Under the pieces are notes generated by a model. That model was given only the letters and a program-made list of their open reading frames with translations, did not search any database and was not told the DNA's origin. A stretch of DNA of 64,000 nucleotides from Nitrospirota bacterium (GTDB lineage: Bacteria; Nitrospirota; UBA9217), in NCBI GenBank assembly GCA_963741205.1, contig CAVUHW010000010.1:1-64000 (forward strand). The letters are read 5' to 3'. Positions 1 to 56,170 of the stretch are shown here, piece after piece. Position numbers and translations under genes: made by a program. Positions within the stretch are counted from its first letter, which is position 1; each line of letters starts with the position of its first letter.

Positions 1-19
1 GCCATGTTGTACTCAACTT

Positions 20-476
20 TCAGTTACATATCTTCTTTCCTCGTGCAAGGACCCGACACTTGGCCAACAGCTGATAAAAAACCTTCTGATACAGCTGCCA
101 TGGCCGATGTTCGTTGGCATAGGCCAGTGTGGAGCGCTTGGGCGCCTCATCGATACCGAGGTGTTTAAGTTTGCCCAGGCATGTCGCCAATCCTCCGCAT
201 ATCTCCCGTAGCGAGTGTGCCTGCCCCAGCTGACAGAATACCATCGCGACGAACTGGCCCCAGCAACTGAATCCTTTCACTCCTTTCTCGGCTCTGGTCT
301 CCCGCACCGCTCTTACAAAATCCTGATGTGGAAATATCTGTAGAATCTGTCCGAAAATACTGTTAAACTTGTTCACGGGGATGTCCTCCTTCAGAGAAAG
401 TGGTCTTAGACAAACCTACTCTATCCGATTGAGGCGTCCCCTGCAATTACTTAAATCTTATCTTGGACGGGTCTGA
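20..476 (-). mobile_element. IS4-family element fragment: DUF4372-type transposase N-terminus (ORF 20..376) plus probable left end
   Basis: ORF MNKFNSIFGQIL...FSCWGQFVAMVFCQLGQAHSLREICGGL...KRSTLAYANEHRPWQLY matches the N-terminal domain of IS4/DUF4372 transposases. It stops before the DDE domain. The end coordinate (~476) is estimated from CAGACCCGTCCAAGAT on the minus strand. Confidence 0.8.
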
Positions 477-1931: not shown

Positions 1932-4429
<2,498 letters not shown>

Positions 4430-9932: not shown

Positions 9933-11414
9933 ATGTTCAAGAACCTTTCCACCAGGCTGGCAGGCGTCCTGTTCGTATTGTTTCTGATCATCGGCATCCT
10001 GTACATCCTGCTGACGATCTATACCACCCGCCTCTATTTCCAGGAAGTGAACCAGAAGCTGAACCGCATCCTGGCCCAGCACCTGGTCTCGGAAAATATC
10101 CTCATGAAGGAGGGACGGGTCGACGAAGAGGCTCTTCGGAACATCTTTCACATGCTCATGGTCGTGAACCCGGTCATCGAGGTTTATCTCCTCGATGCGC
10201 AGGGAAACATCCTGGCTTACTCGGCCCCGCCGGGAAAGGTGAAGCGAAAAGCTGTGTCGCTGGAGCCTGTGAAACGGCTCTTAAGCGGGGCCATGCCGCT
10301 GCCCGTGCTGGGCGACGATCCCCGCGATCTAACTCAGAAAAAAGTATTTTCCGTTGCCCCCATTTCGCTCGACGGCCGCACCGAGGGCTACCTTTACATC
10401 ATCCTGGGCGGGGAAGAGTTCGAGACCGAGGCCCAGATGCTGCAAGGCAGCTACATCCTGCGGCTCAGCGTCTTTGCTGCGGCGGGGGGGCTGCTCTTCG
10501 CCCTCCTGGCGGCGCTGCTCCTGTTCAACCGGATGACGCGGAGGCTCCGGCATTTGACCCTGGCCATGGAGACGTTCCGGCAGAGCGACTTTTCGGCGCC
10601 CCCCGGGCCCCTTCATCGGGCTCCCACCCGCCAGGGAGATGAAATCGACAGGCTTGGCGGGATCTTCGAACAGATGTCTGAGCGCATCGTCGGGCAGTTT
10701 ACGGAGCTCAAGGCCTCGGACAAGCTTCGGCGGGAAATGGTGGCAAACATAGCTCATGATCTGAGGACCCCTCTCACGTCCCTTCAAGGCTATCTTGAAA
10801 CCCTGCTCATGAAGGAGGGGACCTTGACGGCCGTTGAAAAGCGCGACTATCTCATGACCGCAATCAAGCGTTCAGACCAGCTCGGGAAGCTGATCTCCGG
10901 GCTCTTCGAGCTTGCGAAACTCGATTCGCCGGATGTCCGGGTCCGCTTCGAAGCCTTCTCTCTTGACGAACTTGTCCAGGACATCCTGCAGAAGTTCCGG
11001 CTCGCGGCGGAAAAGAAAAAGATCAGTCTCCGGATGAATATGGCCGACGATCTTCCGGCGGTGTACGCGGACATCGGGCTCTCCGAACGGGTGTTCGAAA
11101 ACCTCATCGAAAACGCCCTCCGCTCCACGCCGCATGACGGTTCGATCACGGTCAGCGCGGAACCCGAAAGCGGCCGCATCAAGGTCCGGGTTTCGGATAC
11201 GGGCTCGGGAATCCCGGCCGAGGACATCCCGCACCTGTTCGACCGCCTCTATTATCGCGAGCGAAGGGGCGGACAGGGAGCGGGTTCCGGGCTCGGTCTT
11301 ATCATTGCCAGGAGAATCCTCGAACTCCACGGGAGCGGCCTCGAGGTTACGAGCGAGATCAATGCCGGCACGACCTTTACGTTTTTCCTGCCAATAAATA
11401 AACCCCGGTTGTGA
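9933..11414 (+). CDS. HAMP-containing sensor histidine kinase
   Basis: Two TM segments, HAMP (DEIDRLG), H-box AHDLRTPL, N-box NLIENA, DTGSGI and GSGLGL. Confidence 0.95.
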   Translation: MFKNLSTRLAGVLFVLFLIIGILYILLTIYTTRLYFQEVNQKLNRILAQHLVSENILMKEGRVDEEALRNIFHMLMVVNPVIEVYLLDAQGNILAYSAPPGKVKRKAVSLEPVKRLLSGAMPLPVLGDDPRDLTQKKVFSVAPISLDGRTEGYLYIILGGEEFETEAQMLQGSYILRLSVFAAAGGLLFALLAALLLFNRMTRRLRHLTLAMETFRQSDFSAPPGPLHRAPTRQGDEIDRLGGIFEQMSERIVGQFTELKASDKLRREMVANIAHDLRTPLTSLQGYLETLLMKEGTLTAVEKRDYLMTAIKRSDQLGKLISGLFELAKLDSPDVRVRFEAFSLDELVQDILQKFRLAAEKKKISLRMNMADDLPAVYADIGLSERVFENLIENALRSTPHDGSITVSAEPESGRIKVRVSDTGSGIPAEDIPHLFDRLYYRERRGGQGAGSGLGLIIARRILELHGSGLEVTSEINAGTTFTFFLPINKPRL

Positions 11415-11462
11415 CCTCCGGAGGCCGAGCCCGGGAAATTCAGCCTTTCGTCTTACCTTTTT

Positions 11463-11503
11463 CCGTGACGAACTCTTTATCCAGCCGTGACCATGCCGTG
11501 ACC
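11463..11503 (+). promoter_or_regulatory. Phased CCGTGAC direct repeats (putative OmpR-family operator) upstream of msrAB
   Basis: CCGTGAC at 11463, 11485 and 11496 (spacings 22 and 11 bp). Confidence 0.55.
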
Positions 11504-11565
11504 TTGAAGAGGTATGCTCTAACCAGTTGCAGGGTGTAATATGATAGAGAAAGAGAGGATATCGT

Positions 11566-12636
11566 ATGCTGATGAAGATGATAATAGGATCATTGCTCAT
11601 TTTACCGCTCCTGGTTACGGCTGCCGGCGCAGGCAACATGCCGCGCCTTGAAAAGGCGACCTTCGCGGGCGGCTGTTTCTGGTGCATGGTGCCGCCGTTT
11701 GAAAAGCTGGACGGCGTCAAGGAGGTCGTCTCCGGCTACACCGGGGGGCGCAAGGTAAATCCCACGTATGAAGAAGTCTCCGCCGGAGGCACGGGCCACC
11801 TGGAGTCCGTGGAGATCACTTACGATCCCGAAAAAGTAAGCTACGCGAAGCTCCTGGACGTATTTTGGATGCAGATCAACCCCACTGACGCGGGCGGCCA
11901 GTTCGTGGACCGCGGGTCGCAGTACAAGTCCGCCATCTTCTATCATAATGACGGGCAGAAGAGGCTGGCCGAAGAATCAAAAAAGAAGCTCGAGGCATCG
12001 GGCCGCTTTGACAAGCCCATAATCACAGAGATCCTTCCCGCCGGTCCTTTTTATCCGGCCGAGGAGTACCACCAGGATTACTGGAAGAAAAATCCCGTCC
12101 GGTACAAATTCTACCGTTACAATTCCGGACGCGACCAGTATCTCCACAAGATCTGGGGAAAGGAGGAGGCGATGCAGACCGCGAATGCCGAAGAAACGTT
12201 CAGCAAGCCGTCAAAGGAGGAGTTGAAAAAGAGGCTCACCCCCATGCAGTATAAGGTGACGCAGGAGGAGGGCACGGAGCCGCCCTTCAGCAATTCATAC
12301 TGGGACAACCACAGGCCGGGCATCTACGTCGATATCGTTTCCGGCGAGCCCTTGTTCAGCTCGCAGGACAAATACGAGTCAGGCACCGGGTGGCCGAGCT
12401 TTACGAGGCCCCTCGAACCCGGAAACATCGTAGAGAAGACGGACCGGCACCTCTTCTCGGTAAGGACCGAGGTCCGGAGCAGGCACGGAGACTCACATCT
12501 GGGCCACGTATTCAACGACGGCCCCAAACCCACGGGCCTTCGCTACTGCATGAATTCCGCGTCGCTCAGATTCATCCCCAGGGAGGACCTGGTGAAGGAA
12601 GGTTACGGGAAGTACGTGAAGCTCTTCGAAAAGTAA
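11566..12636 (+). CDS. msrAB: Exported bifunctional peptide methionine sulfoxide reductase MsrA/MsrB
   Basis: Signal peptide; MsrA motifs GGCFWC and AEEYHQDY; MsrB motifs [14 protein letters not shown] and RYCMNS. Confidence 0.95.
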
Positions 12637-23393: not shown

Positions 23394-23978
23394 ATGAATG
23401 AACGTACGACATCCGATGAATATGACCTTATCCGGCGATGCCTCGAAGGCGATACGGACAGGTTCTCCCTACTGGTGGAAAGGTACAAGTCGATGATGTA
23501 TTCCATCGCATACAGGATGCTCGGAGATCAGGACGCAGCCAACGACATGGCGCAGGAAAGCTTCATTGCAGCGTATACGAGTCTCGGGAGCTTTCAATAC
23601 GGATCCAAGTTTTCGACGTGGCTGTATCAGATCCTGATGAACAAGTGCCGGGACTACCTGAGGTCCGGAAAGAACAAAGTCTCCGTAGATGAAATCGCTG
23701 AACTGCGGTCGGACCCGAAGGACACGCCGGAGCAGTCCGCGCAGGCGCACGAGTTGAGCGATGCGGTCCAGAAGGCGCTCGACGGTTTGCCGCCGGACTA
23801 CCGCGAGGTGATCGTGCTGAAACACATCGAAGAGCTGGATTATGAAGAGATATCGAGGATCCTGGGCGCGAGCGTGGCGGCGCTTAAGGTGAGGGCGCAC
23901 CGGGGCAGGGAAATGCTCAGGAACATCCTGGAACAGGCGGGTATGAACGATGAACAAGGAAACCGAAATAATTCATAG
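23394..23978 (+). CDS. ECF RNA polymerase sigma factor
   Basis: Region 2 (DMAQESFI, KFSTWLYQILMNKCRD) and region 4 (LPPDYREVIVL, YEEISRILG, KVRAHRGR). Confidence 0.93.
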   Translation: MNERTTSDEYDLIRRCLEGDTDRFSLLVERYKSMMYSIAYRMLGDQDAANDMAQESFIAAYTSLGSFQYGSKFSTWLYQILMNKCRDYLRSGKNKVSVDEIAELRSDPKDTPEQSAQAHELSDAVQKALDGLPPDYREVIVLKHIEELDYEEISRILGASVAALKVRAHRGREMLRNILEQAGMNDEQGNRNNS

Positions 23979-24608
23979 ATATTTTGACGGGGACATGACC
24001 GCGGCTGAGAAAGAGGCTTTCATGCATGCGTCTTTCCTCCGAGCCCGGGCTCAAAAAAGAGTTCGATGCCTTCGGAAGTGCGCTCCGCATGGTGGCGGCG
24101 AGCCCGCGGCCGGCAGTTCCTCCGGCGTTCACCACGGATGTCATGAAACGGCTGCCCGTGCGAAGCAAGCCGTTCGGCGAGCGGCTCAGGATATTTCTGT
24201 TCGCGGGCACGGACACTTCAGTGGAATATGGCCGCCGCCCTCGCGACAGCGCTCGTGCTGATCGTGAGTACGACGGTGGTATTCCGAGAGCACATTATTC
24301 CGTCAGGCCCAACCGCAGCAATCCGTCAGGCTGCGCAGGAGACCGCCGTAACCGTGCGCCTGAACCTCTATGCCCCTCAGGCGAAGAACGTTGCCGTATC
24401 CGGAGACTTCAACAAGTGGAAGGTAGATGCCGATGTGATGAGCAGACAGGAAGGCGGGGTCTGGACCATAGACATGAAACTGAAGCCCGGGGTCTATACC
24501 TACATGTTCGTTGTTGACGGCAAGGCATGGATCACGGACCCTGACGCGGAAACGTACCAGGACGATGGTTTCGGGAACAAGAATGCCGTGATGAGGGTGA
24601 GAACATGA
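23950..24608 (+). CDS. Membrane anti-sigma factor with a C-terminal CBM48 glycogen-binding domain (frameshifted)
   Basis: Overlaps the sigma stop; N-terminal IHRYFDGDM anti-sigma-like helices; one TM (AAALATALVLIVST); VAVSGDFNKW...GVYTYMFVVDGKAWITDP. Confidence 0.82.
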
Positions 24609-27559: not shown

Positions 27560-27604
27560 AAAAAAAGGGCAGCCACGCCATGGCGTGGCTGCCCTTATTT
27601 TTTT
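27560..27604. terminator. Bidirectional terminator
   Basis: A-run, then GGGCAGCCACGCCATGGCGTGGCTGCCC, then T-run, between convergent genes. Confidence 0.8.
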
Positions 27605-27621: not shown

Positions 27622-30092
27622 TTACTGCGCTGCAGTCGTGTAGCTCCGAACCTCGCTCGACGACAGGCCGCCCTTGCCGTCGTCCGCGACAACCTTCCAG
27701 TAATAGGTCGTGTTCGGCGTAAGATTCTTGACGGTATTGCTTACCTGATCGGCGGCAATCGGGGGCGGCGGAGTACTTTCACTGCTGCTCGAGTGGCAGG
27801 ACATGAATACAGCTCCCGAGAGCAGGAGGAAGGCGATGAGTAAGCATCATCATCCGCGAGCGCTTCAAACCGCTTCCGTTTATAAAGCCGATCAGAATGA
27901 TCCCCGCTCCTAAACTTCCCAGGCCGGCAAAGAAAAGCCCGGATGGCGCGGCTGCCGTAACGTCGGCAGGTCGTGCAGCCCGTCGTCATGGCCTGATCGG
28001 TGCAGTTGTTGAAATGGTACGTTACTGCATTGCCATCGGGGTCCACCGCCTTGTTCCAGATGAACGTCATCGTCGTGGGAACACCGGTCTGTCCGGGCGC
28101 CGGGGTAACGAGCACGGGCTGGGAGGGCGGATATTGCCGGTGGCCGATATTCCGGAACCGGTCAAGGCTATAGTCACTGGCGAAGGCCGGTAACGTTATT
28201 TGGAATACTGAATGTTGCGCTTACCACGGCGTTGGCGCGTGGGAGCGAAATGGATTGTCAGACTGCACGTGGCGGCATGCTGGCAGCGTTTGACCCGAGC
28301 AGGTATCACTCGTGATGCTGAATGGGGCCGCAGGCGCGGCGATCGTGCCGATGATAAGAGTCCGCCGTTCCCGTATTGGTGACGGTGACCGTCGCATCGG
28401 ACGGAACTTGCCTATGGTAACACCGGCAAAGGGTAACTTCTGGTCGTTGGCGGGGGCGATGGAGTCCGTGACCGACGATGTCCGGGACCGGCGCCGCACT
28501 CCCCGCACCGCTGAGCGCGAAAGGTCACCGGTCGGAGTTAGCCGGGTCGTTGCTCGGGATATTGAAGGTATCGGACGCCGCAGCGAGCGGCAGTCGGCGC
28601 AAACCGTACCGTAACCGTGCAACTTGACGGGAAAAGCGTCAGCGGGTGCGGCAGCGTCGCGCCGGTGCAGGTGTTGGCTCCGACTATAAGACTGAATGGC
28701 GCGGCCAGAGGGTCCAGCCCGGCGATGTCGGTGATGTTCAGGCTGCCGTCGCCGAGGTTGTTGATGGTGATGACCTGGTCCGAGATCGTACCGTCAGTCA
28801 CCGTGCCGAAGTCGATGGCATGTGCAGGCGTCACCGCGATCTTTTGAGGCCTGAATTCAAAGGCGCCTATGTCGCATGTGGCAACGCCGTCAAGAGGAAT
28901 GTTGCCGTCCACGGGCCGCGCGATATCCCCGCTCGTCCGTGGCGGGACAACCAGCCACACCCGCATCTATTGCAGGGCTTCCCTGCAAAAGGGATAGGGT
29001 CAATTGGTGGAACGGCAGGGTCCCGCCGTTGTCGACAAGAGAAAGCTCAGAGCGCAAGGTTAGCAGTGACGGGTAACCGGTAAGCCCGCAGGTAGCGTCG
29101 GTCGCCATGTTACCCCCCAGCGATACGTAATGCGCCGCCGCAATTATTACCGGCGTAGTTATTTGCAATGATCGTATTCGTGATGTTTACGGTTCCGCCG
29201 GCACATTACTGAATGCCGCCGACATTGACCCGCCGCGGGCCGATGTTGCCGTTAAGCGTGCACATTGATGAGATTGACGAGTGCCGGCAGCCTTGTTATC
29301 GATGGCGCCGCCGTTTCCCGCTGTTAAATTGCCGCTCATGGTGACGTTCGTGAGATTATCGTGCCTCCGTTATTGATAGCGCTAATCGCTGTTGCCGCTG
29401 ATAGTCCCGTTGGTAATGGTAAGCGTGCTGCACCGCTCCGACGTTGATGGCACCGCCGGGGGAAATGTTGTTCGTGATGGCGACATTGTTCATGGTGACC
29501 GTTGCCGCCACCTGCCCCGATAGCGATGGCGCCGCCTTCGGCAGCCTGCCGTGTTGCCCGTGATGATCGAATTATTCAGGGTCAGCGATGCTGCCGCCGC
29601 CGATATCGAATAGCGCCTCCGCCTGCCGCTCCGCCGGAATTCCCGTTCCGGATCGTCACGCCCGAGATGGTAACGTTGACCGCACCGATGAGTATCGAAT
29701 ACCCGGTCGATCGCGCCGCCGTCGATGATTGTCGTTGCCGCGCCTGCGCCGGATGATGGTAAGCGGCCCGCCTGCTCCGTTGACGTCGAGATCGCCGGTT
29801 ACAGCCGCGTCATCACCCGCTGCCGGCGATAGTCAGCGTATAGGTCCCTGCGGGAAGAATGATGGTGTCGCACCCCGAGGATGCATTTGCCGCCTGGATG
29901 GCGGAGCGAAGCGTGCATGATCCCGTTGTCGGAGCACAGCGGCAGCTAAGTCCAGCTGTGTCAGCCGTGCTGTTCACCGTGAATGTCAGCGGCATGGCCC
30001 TGGCCCGGCGCCAGGAAAAGAAGCATGAGACTCAATAAGAGCAATCCCCCCAAAGAATAAACATCTTTTTTTTGCTTACCCATTGCGTACAT
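27622..30092 (-). CDS. Large surface protein: CSLREA domain, beta-helix/choice-of-anchor Q, choice-of-anchor D Ig domains, C-terminal FN3 (heavily frameshifted)
   Basis: AAGGAGGT SD; FTVNSTADT...CTLRSAIQAAN; GSPAIDAG...DERG; CDIGAFE; IDFGTV...ITINNLG...SCTVTVRFAP; NLTPNTTYYWKVVADD. Confidence 0.75.
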
Positions 30093-31419: not shown

Positions 31420-32123
31420 TCAAGACTTATGCAGCACGACCCGCACATCCAGCGCCGAGGCGCCCCTGGCGTAGACGCGCACGGGATTCATGTCGATCTC
31501 CTTGATCTCGGGGTAATCGGTCAGGAGCTTCGACAGGTTGGTGATGATCAGGTGCACGGCCTCCTCGTCGAGCGCGGGACTGCCGCGGAATCCCCGTAAA
31601 AACATGCTTGCCCTGGTTTGGGATATCATATCGACCGTCTCTTCATGGCTGAGCGGCAGGATGCCGAAGGCGGTGTCCTTGAGCGCCTCGACCCAGACAC
31701 CCCCGAGGCCGAAGGCCACGGACGGGCCGAACTGCTCGTCCCGAAGACCGCCGATCAGGAGCTCAAGCCCCTGCGGCATCATCTTCTCGACCAGAAATCC
31801 CCGGATGACCGCACCGGGCGCCCTCGCCGCGATCATGTTTTTCATCGCCGTTACCGAGGCCGAAAGCATCGGACCGGAAAGAATGTTCAGCATCACGGCG
31901 CCTGCGTCGGTCTTATGCAGGATCTGGGGGAAACGGCCTTGAGAGCGACGGGAAAGCCGAGCGACTCGCCGGCGGCCACGACGGCGTGAGGATCATGTAT
32001 CAGCCAGAACGTATCTCGGCACGATAATACCGACAGAGTGCGCGAGTTCCTTGGCCTCGTGCTCGAAGAGTGATTTGCGGCCCTCCTTCGGGCTGTCTGA
32101 ATGATATCTGCGGGTGTTTTCAT
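31420..32123 (-). CDS. ADP-forming acetate-CoA ligase beta / ATP-grasp part (frameshifted; may be fused to the alpha part)
   Basis: EHEAKEL, GFPVALKA, GLELLIGGLRDEQFGP, GLGGVWVEALKD and KEIDMNPV. Confidence 0.85.
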
Positions 32124-33639
32124 TGATGATTGGTCGAACCTTGATTCTATGGATGTAGCGATTTCTAAAACCATATCCCCGATGGAAGCATTCGGGGATG
32201 ACCGTTGGTGTGCCGAAGCAGTTGATGTCATTCCCGAGGTACGGAATCGGCAATCCGGTTTGATGGTCATGTCTTGCCTGCACATCGCCTTTCTGATAGC
32301 GGCAAGCGCCCGCACGGCCCTCTCCGGCGACGGGTACACGGGGATGCCGTGCTTCAACAGCAAGTTCATCGCCTCGCGGGTGTAGCCCAGCCCCTGGAGG
32401 ATGCAGCAGGCGACGGGCTTGTTCGCCTCATGACACGCGCGGGCGATGAGCTCCGTCGCCTCGTCGGTCACCGTCGTCGCTCCCATGAGTACGATGATGA
32501 CGGCGGCGTCATAATGCGGCAGGGCCTCTTTGAGCGCCGTAAAATAATCTTCGTTCCTCCCGCTTCCGGTGAGGTCGATGGGATTGCCCTTGACGAAATA
32601 GGGAGGGAAGGCCGAATCGAGCCTTTTCCGGACCTCTTCCGGAAGAGCCGGCATCACGAAGCCTTCCTTCTGCGCCTGGTCCGATGCCGCGACCGCCATG
32701 CCGCCGCCGTTCGTCAGGATAAGGAGCCTGTTCCCCGCGCAGGGGGGCTCCATCAAGCGCGACGGCCTTTGCCGCGTCGATCATGTGGTCGAAACCATAG
32801 GCTTCGACGGCCCCGGCCTGCCGGAAGGCGGCCTGGTAGAGGCCGTATCTGCCTGCAAGCGTCGCCGTGTGCGACGCCACGGCAGAGGCGCCCAGCTCGT
32901 GTTTGCCCGCCTTCCATACGACCAGCGGCTTCTTCGCCGCGAACGCCTTCGCCGATTTCAGGAATTTTCTTCCGTCCGCCACGGACTCCATGTACATGGC
33001 GACCGCGCCGGTCTGAGGGTCGTCCGCGAAATAATCGAGGCAGTCCGCATCATCGATATCGAGCCGGTTTCCGTAGTTCACGGCCTTGGCGATCCCGATA
33101 TCGTCGCGGGCGAGGGCCTCCATCAGAATGACCGTGATAGCGCCGCTCTGGGAGATGATCGAAAGCCTTCCCGCAGCGGGCCGCGAAACACGGTGACGGG
33201 ACACGAAGAAGCTGTCGAGTCCGTTGTCCGTATTGTAGACGCCGAGGGCATTCGGTCCGATGACCCGTATGCCGTAGCGCAGCGTTGTTTCCGCCAGCCG
33301 TTTCTGCATGCCGAGGCCGGCCTCTCCCGCCTCGGCAAAGCCGGAGCTGACTAAAATCGCCCGGCGGATGCCTTTCTCGTGCAGGCGTTCGATCTCCTGT
33401 TCCACAAGACGGGCCGGCAGCGCGACGATGGCAAGATCGATCGCCTCGGGGACCGCCGCGATGGATGGGTAGCACCGCTGTCCCAAAAGCGTTTCGTGCT
33501 TCGGGTTCACCGGGAAGACTGCGCCCCTGAACAGCGACAAGTTTTCCAGGATGGACGTGCCGGGTTTCAGGGGGTTGTCCGTGGCGCCGATGAGGGCCAC
33601 TGTTTTGGGGTGGAAGAACCCGTCGAGATCATGAGGCAT
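32124..33639 (-). CDS. ADP-forming acetate-CoA ligase alpha / CoA-binding part (frameshifted; 3' end uncertain)
   Basis: FFHPKTVALIGAT, IGPNALG, ISQSGA, SHTATLAG (phospho-His), TNGGG and NPIDLTG. Confidence 0.85.
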
Positions 33640-54964: not shown

Positions 54965-56170
54965 ATGAGGACTCTGGATACAAAAAATTTTTTCGTGCCC
55001 GGTTACAAGACATGGGGCATCGCAAGCGGGATCAAAAAAAATGAAAAGAAAGACCTTGCGATCATTTACTCGGACCGTGAGGCCGCAATCGCCGGTGTCT
55101 TTACCAAGAACCGGGTAAAGGCCGCGCCCGTCCTTCTGGACATGGCGAAGGTCAAAGCCGGCAAGGGGCGGGCTATCATCGTCAACAGCGGATGCGCCAA
55201 TGCCTGCACGGGGAAACGCGGCATTACAGACGCCCGCGAGACCGCGGAAACGGCGGCCCGTGAACTCGGCCTGAAACCTGAGGCGGTCCTGGTCGCGTCA
55301 ACCGGTGTTATCGGAGAGTATCTGCCGATGACAAAGGTCAAGACGGGTATCGCTACCGCCGTAGGCCTTTTGACGGGCAGCGGCTGGGAGCAGGCGGCGG
55401 AGGCCATCATGACCACCGATATCTACCCGAAGCTTTCCATCGTGCAAGAGGAACTCGGCGGAAAAACCGTCACCGTTGCCGGCATTGCCAAGGGTTCGGG
55501 CATGATCCATCCGGACATGGCGACTATGCTCTGCTTTATCGTAACCGATGCCGCAATCACGGCGCCGCTGCTCAAGAAAGCGCTGCTGTCATCAGCGGAA
55601 AGATCTTTCAACCTGATCACGGTAGACGGCGACATGAGCACGAACGATACGATCCTCTGCATGGCGAACGGGGCCGCGGGGACCAAGAGAATTGCCGCCG
55701 GCAGCAAGGAATTTAAGAAATTTCAGTCCTGCATGGATGCCGTGACCCGCGCTCTTGCCAGGCAGGTTGTCCGGGACGGAGAGGGCGCGACAAAGTTCGT
55801 GGAGATTGAAGTCAGAAACGCGAAGAATCCCCGTGAGGCCAAGCAGGCGGCGATGACAGTCGCGAAGTCCAGCCTCGTCAAGACGGCGCTTTTCGGAGAA
55901 GACGCAAACTGGGGGCGGATCATGTCCGCGCTGGGTTATTCCGGTGTGGACATGGATGAGGCGAGAACGGACATCCATATCGGCAAGGCAAAAATCGTCG
56001 AGAAAGGCCTGGGCACCGGCAAGGCGGCTGAACGCGAAGCCGCGCTCGCGCTCAAACAGCGTGAGGTCCAGATCATCATCGACCTTCACAAGGGTAAAGG
56101 AAGCGCAACGGTCTGGACCTGCGACATGTCCTACGAATACGTGAAGATAAACGCCGCATACCGAAGCTGA
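54965..56170 (+). CDS. argJ: Bifunctional ornithine acetyltransferase / N-acetylglutamate synthase
   Basis: NSGCANACTG, KGSGMIHPDMATML, DGDMSTND and DGEGATK. Confidence 0.97.
   Translation: MRTLDTKNFFVPGYKTWGIASGIKKNEKKDLAIIYSDREAAIAGVFTKNRVKAAPVLLDMAKVKAGKGRAIIVNSGCANACTGKRGITDARETAETAARELGLKPEAVLVASTGVIGEYLPMTKVKTGIATAVGLLTGSGWEQAAEAIMTTDIYPKLSIVQEELGGKTVTVAGIAKGSGMIHPDMATMLCFIVTDAAITAPLLKKALLSSAERSFNLITVDGDMSTNDTILCMANGAAGTKRIAAGSKEFKKFQSCMDAVTRALARQVVRDGEGATKFVEIEVRNAKNPREAKQAAMTVAKSSLVKTALFGEDANWGRIMSALGYSGVDMDEARTDIHIGKAKIVEKGLGTGKAAEREAALALKQREVQIIIDLHKGKGSATVWTCDMSYEYVKINAAYRS

Follow-up and report, generated by a model that had tools for sequence, protein, structure and literature searches.

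A split-FN3 variant of the putative lipo-invert C-terminal anchoring domain, with a membrane hairpin and an internal lipobox, in a Nitrospirota genome and in other bacteria

To our knowledge, the lipid of every textbook bacterial lipoprotein is attached at the N-terminus. A lipobox at the other end of exported proteins is part of NF058595 ('invert_tail'), the lipo-invert putative C-terminal anchoring domain of NCBIfam release 20.0, whose function is, as its curated name indicates, putative anchoring. Canonical NF058595 tails consist of Ig-like strands (…FSCxxLPxGAxCSF…TLTITT), a first transmembrane segment (TM1), RRR, a second transmembrane segment (TM2) ending in LLSC, a Ser/Pro linker, two strands and the stop. 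In a literature search, lipo-invert, NF058595 and an internal lipobox or lipoprotein signal turned up in no paper, and the titles and abstracts of the papers matching a C-terminal lipobox or lipoprotein signal concern subjects other than such a tail. Here we analyze a tail of related layout at the end of an exported CSLREA / beta-helix / choice-of-anchor protein, encoded on the minus strand at positions 27622..30092 of a 64,000-nucleotide stretch (hereafter the window) of contig CAVUHW010000010.1 from a Nitrospirota bacterium (GCA_963741205.1). In this tail an FN3 domain is interrupted by a membrane hairpin that ends in a lipobox. The original prediction, made from the letters of the window, had proposed a possible new surface-anchoring signal. 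The claim of novelty has to be given up, since NF058595, which came up in our whole-library scan of intact tails, is already curated with the same TM1-basic-TM2-lipobox-strand layout. Judged from its sequence layout, the tail is no new kind of signal but belongs, as a variant with a split FN3, to a kind of tail that is catalogued though unpublished.

Like NF058595, the split-FN3 tails lie at the extreme C-terminus of exported proteins and present, in this order, beta-sandwich strands, TM1, an Arg/Lys cluster, TM2 with the lipobox Cys, a Ser/Pro/Gly linker, final strands and the stop; all the elements of the curated layout were found in them. Canonical members also occur in the same phylum, where matches above the NF058595 cut-off (37 bits) were found in 9 of 401 genomes, the six best (43-69 bits) being canonical tails. 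The two kinds differ in the domain that is split: canonical tails interrupt an Ig-like domain of the FSCxxLPxGAxCSF type and have ~40-50 residues with two strands after the Cys, whereas the split-FN3 tails have the FN3 domain cut at the C'-E loop, with three strands behind the Cys. Of the 23 aligned split-FN3 tails, twenty match NF058595 at E<=0.01, mostly with scores below the cut-off. Among the translated matches, one split-FN3 tail (L023) exceeds it by itself at 37.4 bits, a second (L025) reaches 36.8 bits alone and 37.2 only together with its in-frame neighbours, and a third (L026) stays below it at 36.2. The paralogues on contigs C5 and C43 of the window's own genome score 17.5-19.6 and 23.3 bits, respectively; the pieces of the window tail do not match the model, and none of the 49 matches in this genome is above the cut-off. 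Because most of these weak matches cover only the TM2-Cys part, we take them to be ordinary lipoprotein signals; the model also matches below cut-off in 14 control genomes. When alignments of the two kinds were compared with hhalign, a probability of 74.5% was obtained over TM1, loop, TM2 and Cys. This stretch is of low complexity, and the result therefore indicates a common layout, not necessarily common descent. AlphaFold predictions for the canonical tails (5 sequences; a poor model with a mean predicted local distance difference test score, pLDDT, of 52) gave a helix pair and two terminal strands.

The internal part of the tail also resembles the ordinary lipoprotein signals handled by Lgt, LspA and Lnt, with a basic n-region, an h-region of ~18 residues, S/A/G at position -1, the Cys and a Gly/Ser-rich tether. 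In NCBIfam scans, the N-terminal signals of the lipoprotein family models BamM, PulS_OutS and PrsA aligned weakly to this internal stretch. Unlike those signals, however, which stand at the N-terminus, the signal peptidase II-like signal of the tail is internal: it lies ~55 residues short of the C-terminus, in a chain with its own N-terminal Sec signal, and comes after another transmembrane helix, so that cleavage would cut a big exported protein in two and free no signal peptide. In 1985, Hayashi and colleagues reportedly found internalized prolipoprotein signals to be modified and processed by E. coli and B. subtilis.

The segments on which the original prediction was built could all be located on the minus strand of the window between 27622 and 28118, and three-frame translation gave the following order (all coordinates on the minus strand). 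Strands A, B, C and C' of the FN3 N-half (VLVTPAPGQTGVPTTMTFIWNKAVDPDGNAVTYHFNNCTDQAMTTGCT, 27963..28115), 79% identical to the C5 paralogue, end in …TMTFIWNKAVDPDGNAVTYHFNNCTDQAMTTGCT and are followed by TM1, a Gly-rich hydrophobic segment (GLFFAGLGSLGAGIILIGFI, 27881..27940), and by the basic loop NGSGLKRSR (27854..27880), which is predicted to be cytoplasmic. TM2 (MMM / LLIAFLLLSGAVFMS, 27799..27853) resembles the h-region of a lipoprotein signal and runs into the lipobox cysteine (27796..27798), in the context FMS-C. A Ser/Pro-rich linker (HSSSSESTPPPPIAADQ, 27745..27795) then leads to strands E, F and G of the FN3 C-half (VSNTVKNLTPNTTYYWKVVADDGKGGLSSSEVRSYTTAAQ, 27625..27744), which carry …NTTYYWKVVADDGKGG… and are closed by the stop codon at 27622-27624. 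In the deposited sequence these parts are distributed over three frames: the first contains TMTFIWNKAVDPDGNAVTYHF; the second GLFFAGLGSLGAGIILIGFI, NGSGLKRSR and MMM; the third LLIAFLLLSGAVFMS-C-HSSSSESTPPPP...VKNLTPNTTYYWKVVADDGKGG... and the stop.

The window tail shares 87% DNA identity with the C5 paralogue, which is in one frame, and exactly two frame-changing differences were found inside the module, each a single extra base in the window: the first at 27969..27970 (alignment A2, column 235) and the second, within TM2, at ~27839 (column 366). The two indels for which the original prediction had corrected are thus, by alignment to the paralogue, real features of the deposited sequence. 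Since the essential genes rpoC (C13:85702-89702, 3 pieces), secA (C13:52098-54351, 4 pieces) and lnt (C45:75282-76330, 4 pieces) are also broken in this genome, where rpoB is intact, we read the extra bases as most likely consensus errors of the assembly and not as biology, and the three apparent small open reading frames (ORFs) as most likely one gene. The CSLREA gene as a whole falls into about 18 frame segments when mapped against the intact 825-aa homologue P0067; the C5 gene shows ~10 frame changes against P0067 upstream of its tail. With ~18 frame changes in 2.4 kb, the window gene is more densely broken than secA or rpoC, which counts against ascribing every break to the assembly; this one copy may conceivably have decayed. 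The module itself might in principle be an artefact or a relic, namely a pseudogene, a mis-assembly of two genes (a TM-anchor end and a small lipoprotein) or a product of programmed frame breaks, as the two corrections in the tail and the ~18 changes in the gene could suggest. We hold this to be very improbable, as the module is one open frame in 3 paralogues and in the 60 loci and 42 representatives described below, homologues show neither a Met nor a stop conserved in the stretch from the basic loop to TM2, and rpoC, secA and lnt are broken in this assembly as well. For the tail family as a whole, the sequences compared essentially exclude an artefact. The assembly carries indel errors genome-wide, and its 84% completeness may partly reflect them.

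The two FN3 halves on either side of the hairpin are predicted to form one domain. In an AlphaFold2 model of the C5 tail, built from a 23-sequence alignment, the strands before TM1 (residues 1-55) have a pLDDT of 88-97 and those after the linker (residues 125-164) of 96-98; helices were placed at 68-80, corresponding to TM1, and at 87-103, and the linker is disordered, with a pLDDT <50. VIA-align superposed the model, over the range 1..164, on single FN3 domains with Z 10-11 and 85-95 residues at a root-mean-square deviation (rmsd) of 1.9-2.7; for the solved FN3 domain 3pdg, 85 of 91 residues were aligned at rmsd 1.9 and Z 10.7. The top Foldseek matches of the whole tail model were likewise FN3 domains, at E 2e-3 or weaker, with no match at E<=0.001, a weak score that we attribute to the insertion. 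The split of the domain also accounts, in our view, for scores below the Pfam PF00041 gathering score (25), which were 19.9 bits for the C-half in the window (fn3 positions 47-80 of 84) and 13.4-18.2 bits for intact tails. The split-FN3 tails thus have, by model and superposition, the FN3 beta-sandwich fold, and the idea that both halves belong to one FN3 domain holds up in the prediction, which puts the hairpin in the C'-E loop; the strands after the Cys are predicted to complete the beta-sandwich begun before TM1. FN3 repeats of this subfamily that are not split (such as P0009, P0020 and P0089) have the same fold and the same flanking signature, P.NG.TGV..WxxSxDPDGD.vtY ... TtYYWKVvAkDgkGG...WsFtT. 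Because their C' and E strands are linked by a short turn, the ~60-70 residues of TM1, loop, TM2, Cys and linker in the tail can be described as an insertion into the C'-E loop.

We then considered how often the arrangement recurs. The original prediction had called for a hidden Markov model of the tail and a count of its paralogues; tblastn and profile searches gave seven copies in this genome, one on C10, one on C5, two on C18 and three on C43, of which three are uninterrupted in a single frame (C5, C18 49202-49696 and C43 21402-21881). A domain scan of these seven copies identified CSLREA/beta-helix passengers on C10 and C5 and Big_5 Ig-like arrays on C18 and C43. In a set of 41 genomes (40 related ones and this one), 11 gave a profile match at E<=0.001, and stop-free matches spanning all or nearly all of the 163-position profile, in open frames of 148-1685 residues, were present in 8 other related genomes. 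Among 1.84 billion cluster representatives, 9680 matched at E<=0.001. Most of these are plain tandem FN3 repeats, each matching one half; 42 of the best 150 show one continuous match over profile positions 1-152 or 1-163. In 41 of these 42 the match ends <=2 residues from the C-terminus of the protein, and P0060 extends 13 residues more. Their N-terminal parts, judged by reading the sequences, are varied: beta-helix, Big_5, LRR, NHL, LamG-like and subtilase-like.

A scan with one genome per species yielded 173 relatives, the best 80 of which were kept as 79 loci. Eleven with a match to the C-terminal half only were left out, and of the 68 examined, 8 were set aside, 2 with stops and 6 encoding long tandem plain-FN3 proteins devoid of hydrophobic segments. 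The module is present in the other 60, with the stop 0-9 residues past the match, and in none of them does a stop precede TM2, in keeping with the single frame assumed by the original prediction. All 60 are from metagenome-assembled genomes (MAGs) which, according to their record titles, belong to Nitrospirota (27 loci), Desulfuromonadales/Geobacter (9), other 'Deltaproteobacteria' (7), Gammaproteobacteria (7), Betaproteobacteria (2), Alphaproteobacteria (1), Deferribacteres (2) and 'Bacteroidetes' (1), or are unclassified (4). The 'Bacteroidetes' locus agrees with a Thermodesulfovibrio MAG (L051) in tail length, lipobox and sample prefix. With seven copies in one genome, 60 of 68 loci and 42 of the best 150 representatives, the layout, as judged by this recurrence, is far beyond chance. 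At the very end of Sec-exported proteins whose passengers are unrelated (CSLREA/beta-helix, Big_5, LRR, NHL, LamG, S8 protease), the module recurs as a conserved unit, and a signal-like N-terminus was seen in 18 of the 26 representatives starting with M.

Conservation between the FN3 halves is concentrated on the cysteine. In the alignment of 23 tails (A3), TM1, loop, TM2 and linker keep their composition and not their sequence, and the Cys is the only invariant column. It directly follows TM2 in 59 of 60 loci, in all 42 representatives and in all 23 aligned tails, so the conservation that the original prediction had asked of this residue is borne out. Two hydrophobic segments were detected at the threshold used in 58 of the 60 loci. 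The six-residue stretch richest in K/R contains 2-5 K/R in every locus and lies between the two hydrophobic segments in 58; in L073 and L076 our script misplaced it. We applied a lipobox pattern after PROSITE PS51257, requiring an n-region with K/R 15-35 residues upstream of the Cys, with the count starting at the basic loop, and found it at the post-TM2 Cys of 55/60 loci and 42/42 representatives. Among the 57 tallied loci, 32 have S, 16 have A and 6 have G at position -1, with G also in L073 and L076, which the script had missed; the Cys is followed by G in 43 of the 57 and by S in 9. From the Cys to the C-terminus there are 46-79 residues, with a median of 55.

The tail can also be compared with the C-terminal sorting signals of the PEP-CTERM/exosortase and LPXTG/sortase systems. 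TM1 has their tripartite look, a short motif followed by a Gly-rich TM and a basic cluster, and the tail is borne by 'choice-of-anchor' passengers. Since known C-terminal sorting signals place a basic cluster behind a Gly-rich TM, a dedicated enzyme could be imagined to cut at an [FY][FY]AG-like motif and to release or transfer the passenger, the lipobox part having another role. In 33 of the 60 loci, TM1 indeed starts with a motif loosely resembling x[FY][FY]A[GS] (IYYAG, IYFAG, LLFAG), with GLFFAG in the window at ~27925-27940, and the type of the passenger domains would suit such an enzyme. Unlike those signals, however, the tail has neither a PEP nor an LPXTG motif, and a second helix and folded strands continue its chain beyond the basic cluster. 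Whole-library NCBIfam scans of the window pieces and of three intact tails matched no PEP-CTERM or other curated sorting-signal model at E<=1. No sortase-like gene was found beside the tails at 35 loci, where no dedicated neighbour gene recurs at all: the clusters seen in more than 3 loci are only antisense ORFs inside the passenger gene. Cutting ahead of TM1 would, moreover, disrupt an FN3 fold that is well conserved on both sides. A sorting enzyme of this kind thus appears distinctly improbable.

The lack of a recurring neighbour fits the use of general machinery, and this genome encodes lspA, two lgt, lolCE, a LolA-like gene and an lnt that assembly errors have fragmented. A second Lgt dedicated to the tail was considered and rejected: two lgt copies are a trait of the genus regardless of the tail, and the tail-bearing genomes G031 and G037 have only one each.

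Taken together, we rather favour the reading that the tail anchors the protein to the membrane by its C-terminus as a module of the lipo-invert type, with internal lipidation and a split-FN3 tether. The passenger and the FN3 N-half would be exported via Sec, TM1 would act as a stop-transfer segment, and the basic loop would be kept in the cytoplasm. TM2 would serve as an internal lipoprotein signal that re-exports the last ~55 residues, and the two halves would fold as one FN3 domain at the outer face of the inner membrane. Lgt would add diacylglycerol to the Cys and LspA would probably cut before it, leaving a lipidated tail of ~55 residues whose three strands, held fast in the FN3 sandwich, would tether the passenger. 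The mechanism of internal lipidation, cleavage and strand complementation put forward in the original prediction withstands the findings that could have overturned it, because no stop precedes TM2 in homologues, the halves co-fold in the model and the Cys is conserved; we consider it plausible. A further-reaching scheme, which we regard as doubtful, is that of an 'inverse lipoprotein': after Lgt and LspA have acted, the Gly-rich hairpin would be cleared by intramembrane proteolysis, the passenger would be held by FN3 strand complementation to a triacylated tail of ~55 residues, and Lol would carry the complex to the outer membrane.

Several observations weigh against a lipid-based anchor. After a cut by LspA the passenger would still be joined to the TM hairpin, which leaves the contribution of the lipid unclear. 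The hairpin is modelled at low confidence (pLDDT 50-68), the lipobox calls are based on a sequence pattern, and a word-based search of limited sensitivity, among homologues of 44-140 aa, found no stand-alone small lipoprotein equal to the post-loop fragment. One Betaproteobacteria locus (L077, match 3001-3435) encodes a divergent split-FN3 tail that has no Cys after TM2 and instead shows LAGC inside TM1, and four others (L044, L063, L068 and L087) have the Cys with an atypical residue at -1 or -2, as in the YFYC-C of L087. On account of these five loci, the bare hairpin alone may suffice as an anchor, and L077 and L087 are possible lipid-free or re-wired variants. Generalized to all tails, this would make the module a plain two-helix anchor, holding the FN3 domain on top of the inner membrane, in which the Cys is not lipidated, or not cut, and the lipobox look reflects the needs of a re-export helix. 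Such a topology, with a basic loop between two hydrophobic segments, is self-sufficient. We nevertheless judge it unlikely as a general explanation: a Cys in 59/60 loci and 42/42 representatives, preceded by S/A/G and followed by G/S, is a lipoprotein signature and not a general feature of TM ends, this Cys is the sole invariant residue between the FN3 halves, and the Gly/Ser-rich linker behind it is like that of ordinary lipoproteins. The lipo-invert-type module with internal lipidation remains the reading we prefer.

The remainder of the window gene conforms to that of an exported surface protein. Read by eye in the ORF 29961..30092, its N-terminus is a Sec-type signal peptide, MYAMGKQKKD..LLLLSLMLLFLAPGQGHA (29991..30092), followed by a CSLREA N-terminal domain (29885..29983; TIGR04214, 32.9 bits against a cut-off of 25, on ORF 29813-29995), a choice-of-anchor Q domain (28917..29039; NF041518, 39 bits against a cut-off of 25) and a choice-of-anchor D-like Ig domain (28586..28846; NF012200, 43.7 bits, slightly below the cut-off of 45). 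A terminator-like hairpin on the same strand, with a 14-bp stem and a T run, lies at 27565..27596, 26 nt 3' of the stop codon. The neighbours of the gene are an extracytoplasmic function (ECF) sigma factor, a CBM48 protein and unknowns. At 23394-24608 on the plus strand, overlapping short ORFs and the CBM48/AMPK1_CBM-domain protein come after the ECF-type sigma factor (Sigma70_r2/r4); the group, which lies a few kb from the surface-protein gene, could represent a sigma/anti-sigma unit. At 31420-32756 on the minus strand, adjacent ORFs with ATP-grasp_5 and Ligase_CoA_2 pieces look like a single ADP-forming acyl-CoA synthetase-like gene split by a frame break.

Further features were observed elsewhere in this genome (G000). 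Upstream of the three tandem tail-bearing genes of C43, the region 10000-12400 (L003) encodes many CSSCHG/CAGCHG heme-binding-like repeats with Thr/Pro linkers between them, broken in frame. Near the two tail-bearing genes of C18, a 250-aa ORF at ~55230-55983 on the minus strand (L002, 11231-11983) ends in a CxxC...CxxC zinc ribbon and resembles a TnpB/OrfB-type transposon protein. At C42:3300-3860 (L004), a protein ends in an FN3 C-half-like …VVALDGKGGISESAVWSFTTQ that has no hairpin and is preceded, in its frame, by a stop; by its sequence this is a degenerate FN3 end or else an unrelated one.

The curated NF058595 model misses most split-FN3 tails, and a sister model would therefore be useful for annotation. 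The split-FN3 tail is a real and widespread architecture, with C-terminal tethering as its putative function. If the proposed mechanism is true, diderm bacteria of several phyla would apply the ordinary Lgt/LspA machinery to an internal signal, and big, varied surface proteins would be attached by their C-terminal end through a domain cut in two and joined by strand complementation. The tail would then be a compact and portable anchoring tag and, should the 'inverse lipoprotein' scheme also be true, a general, sortase-free means of lipid-anchoring large proteins at their C-terminus through a non-covalent split-domain joint.

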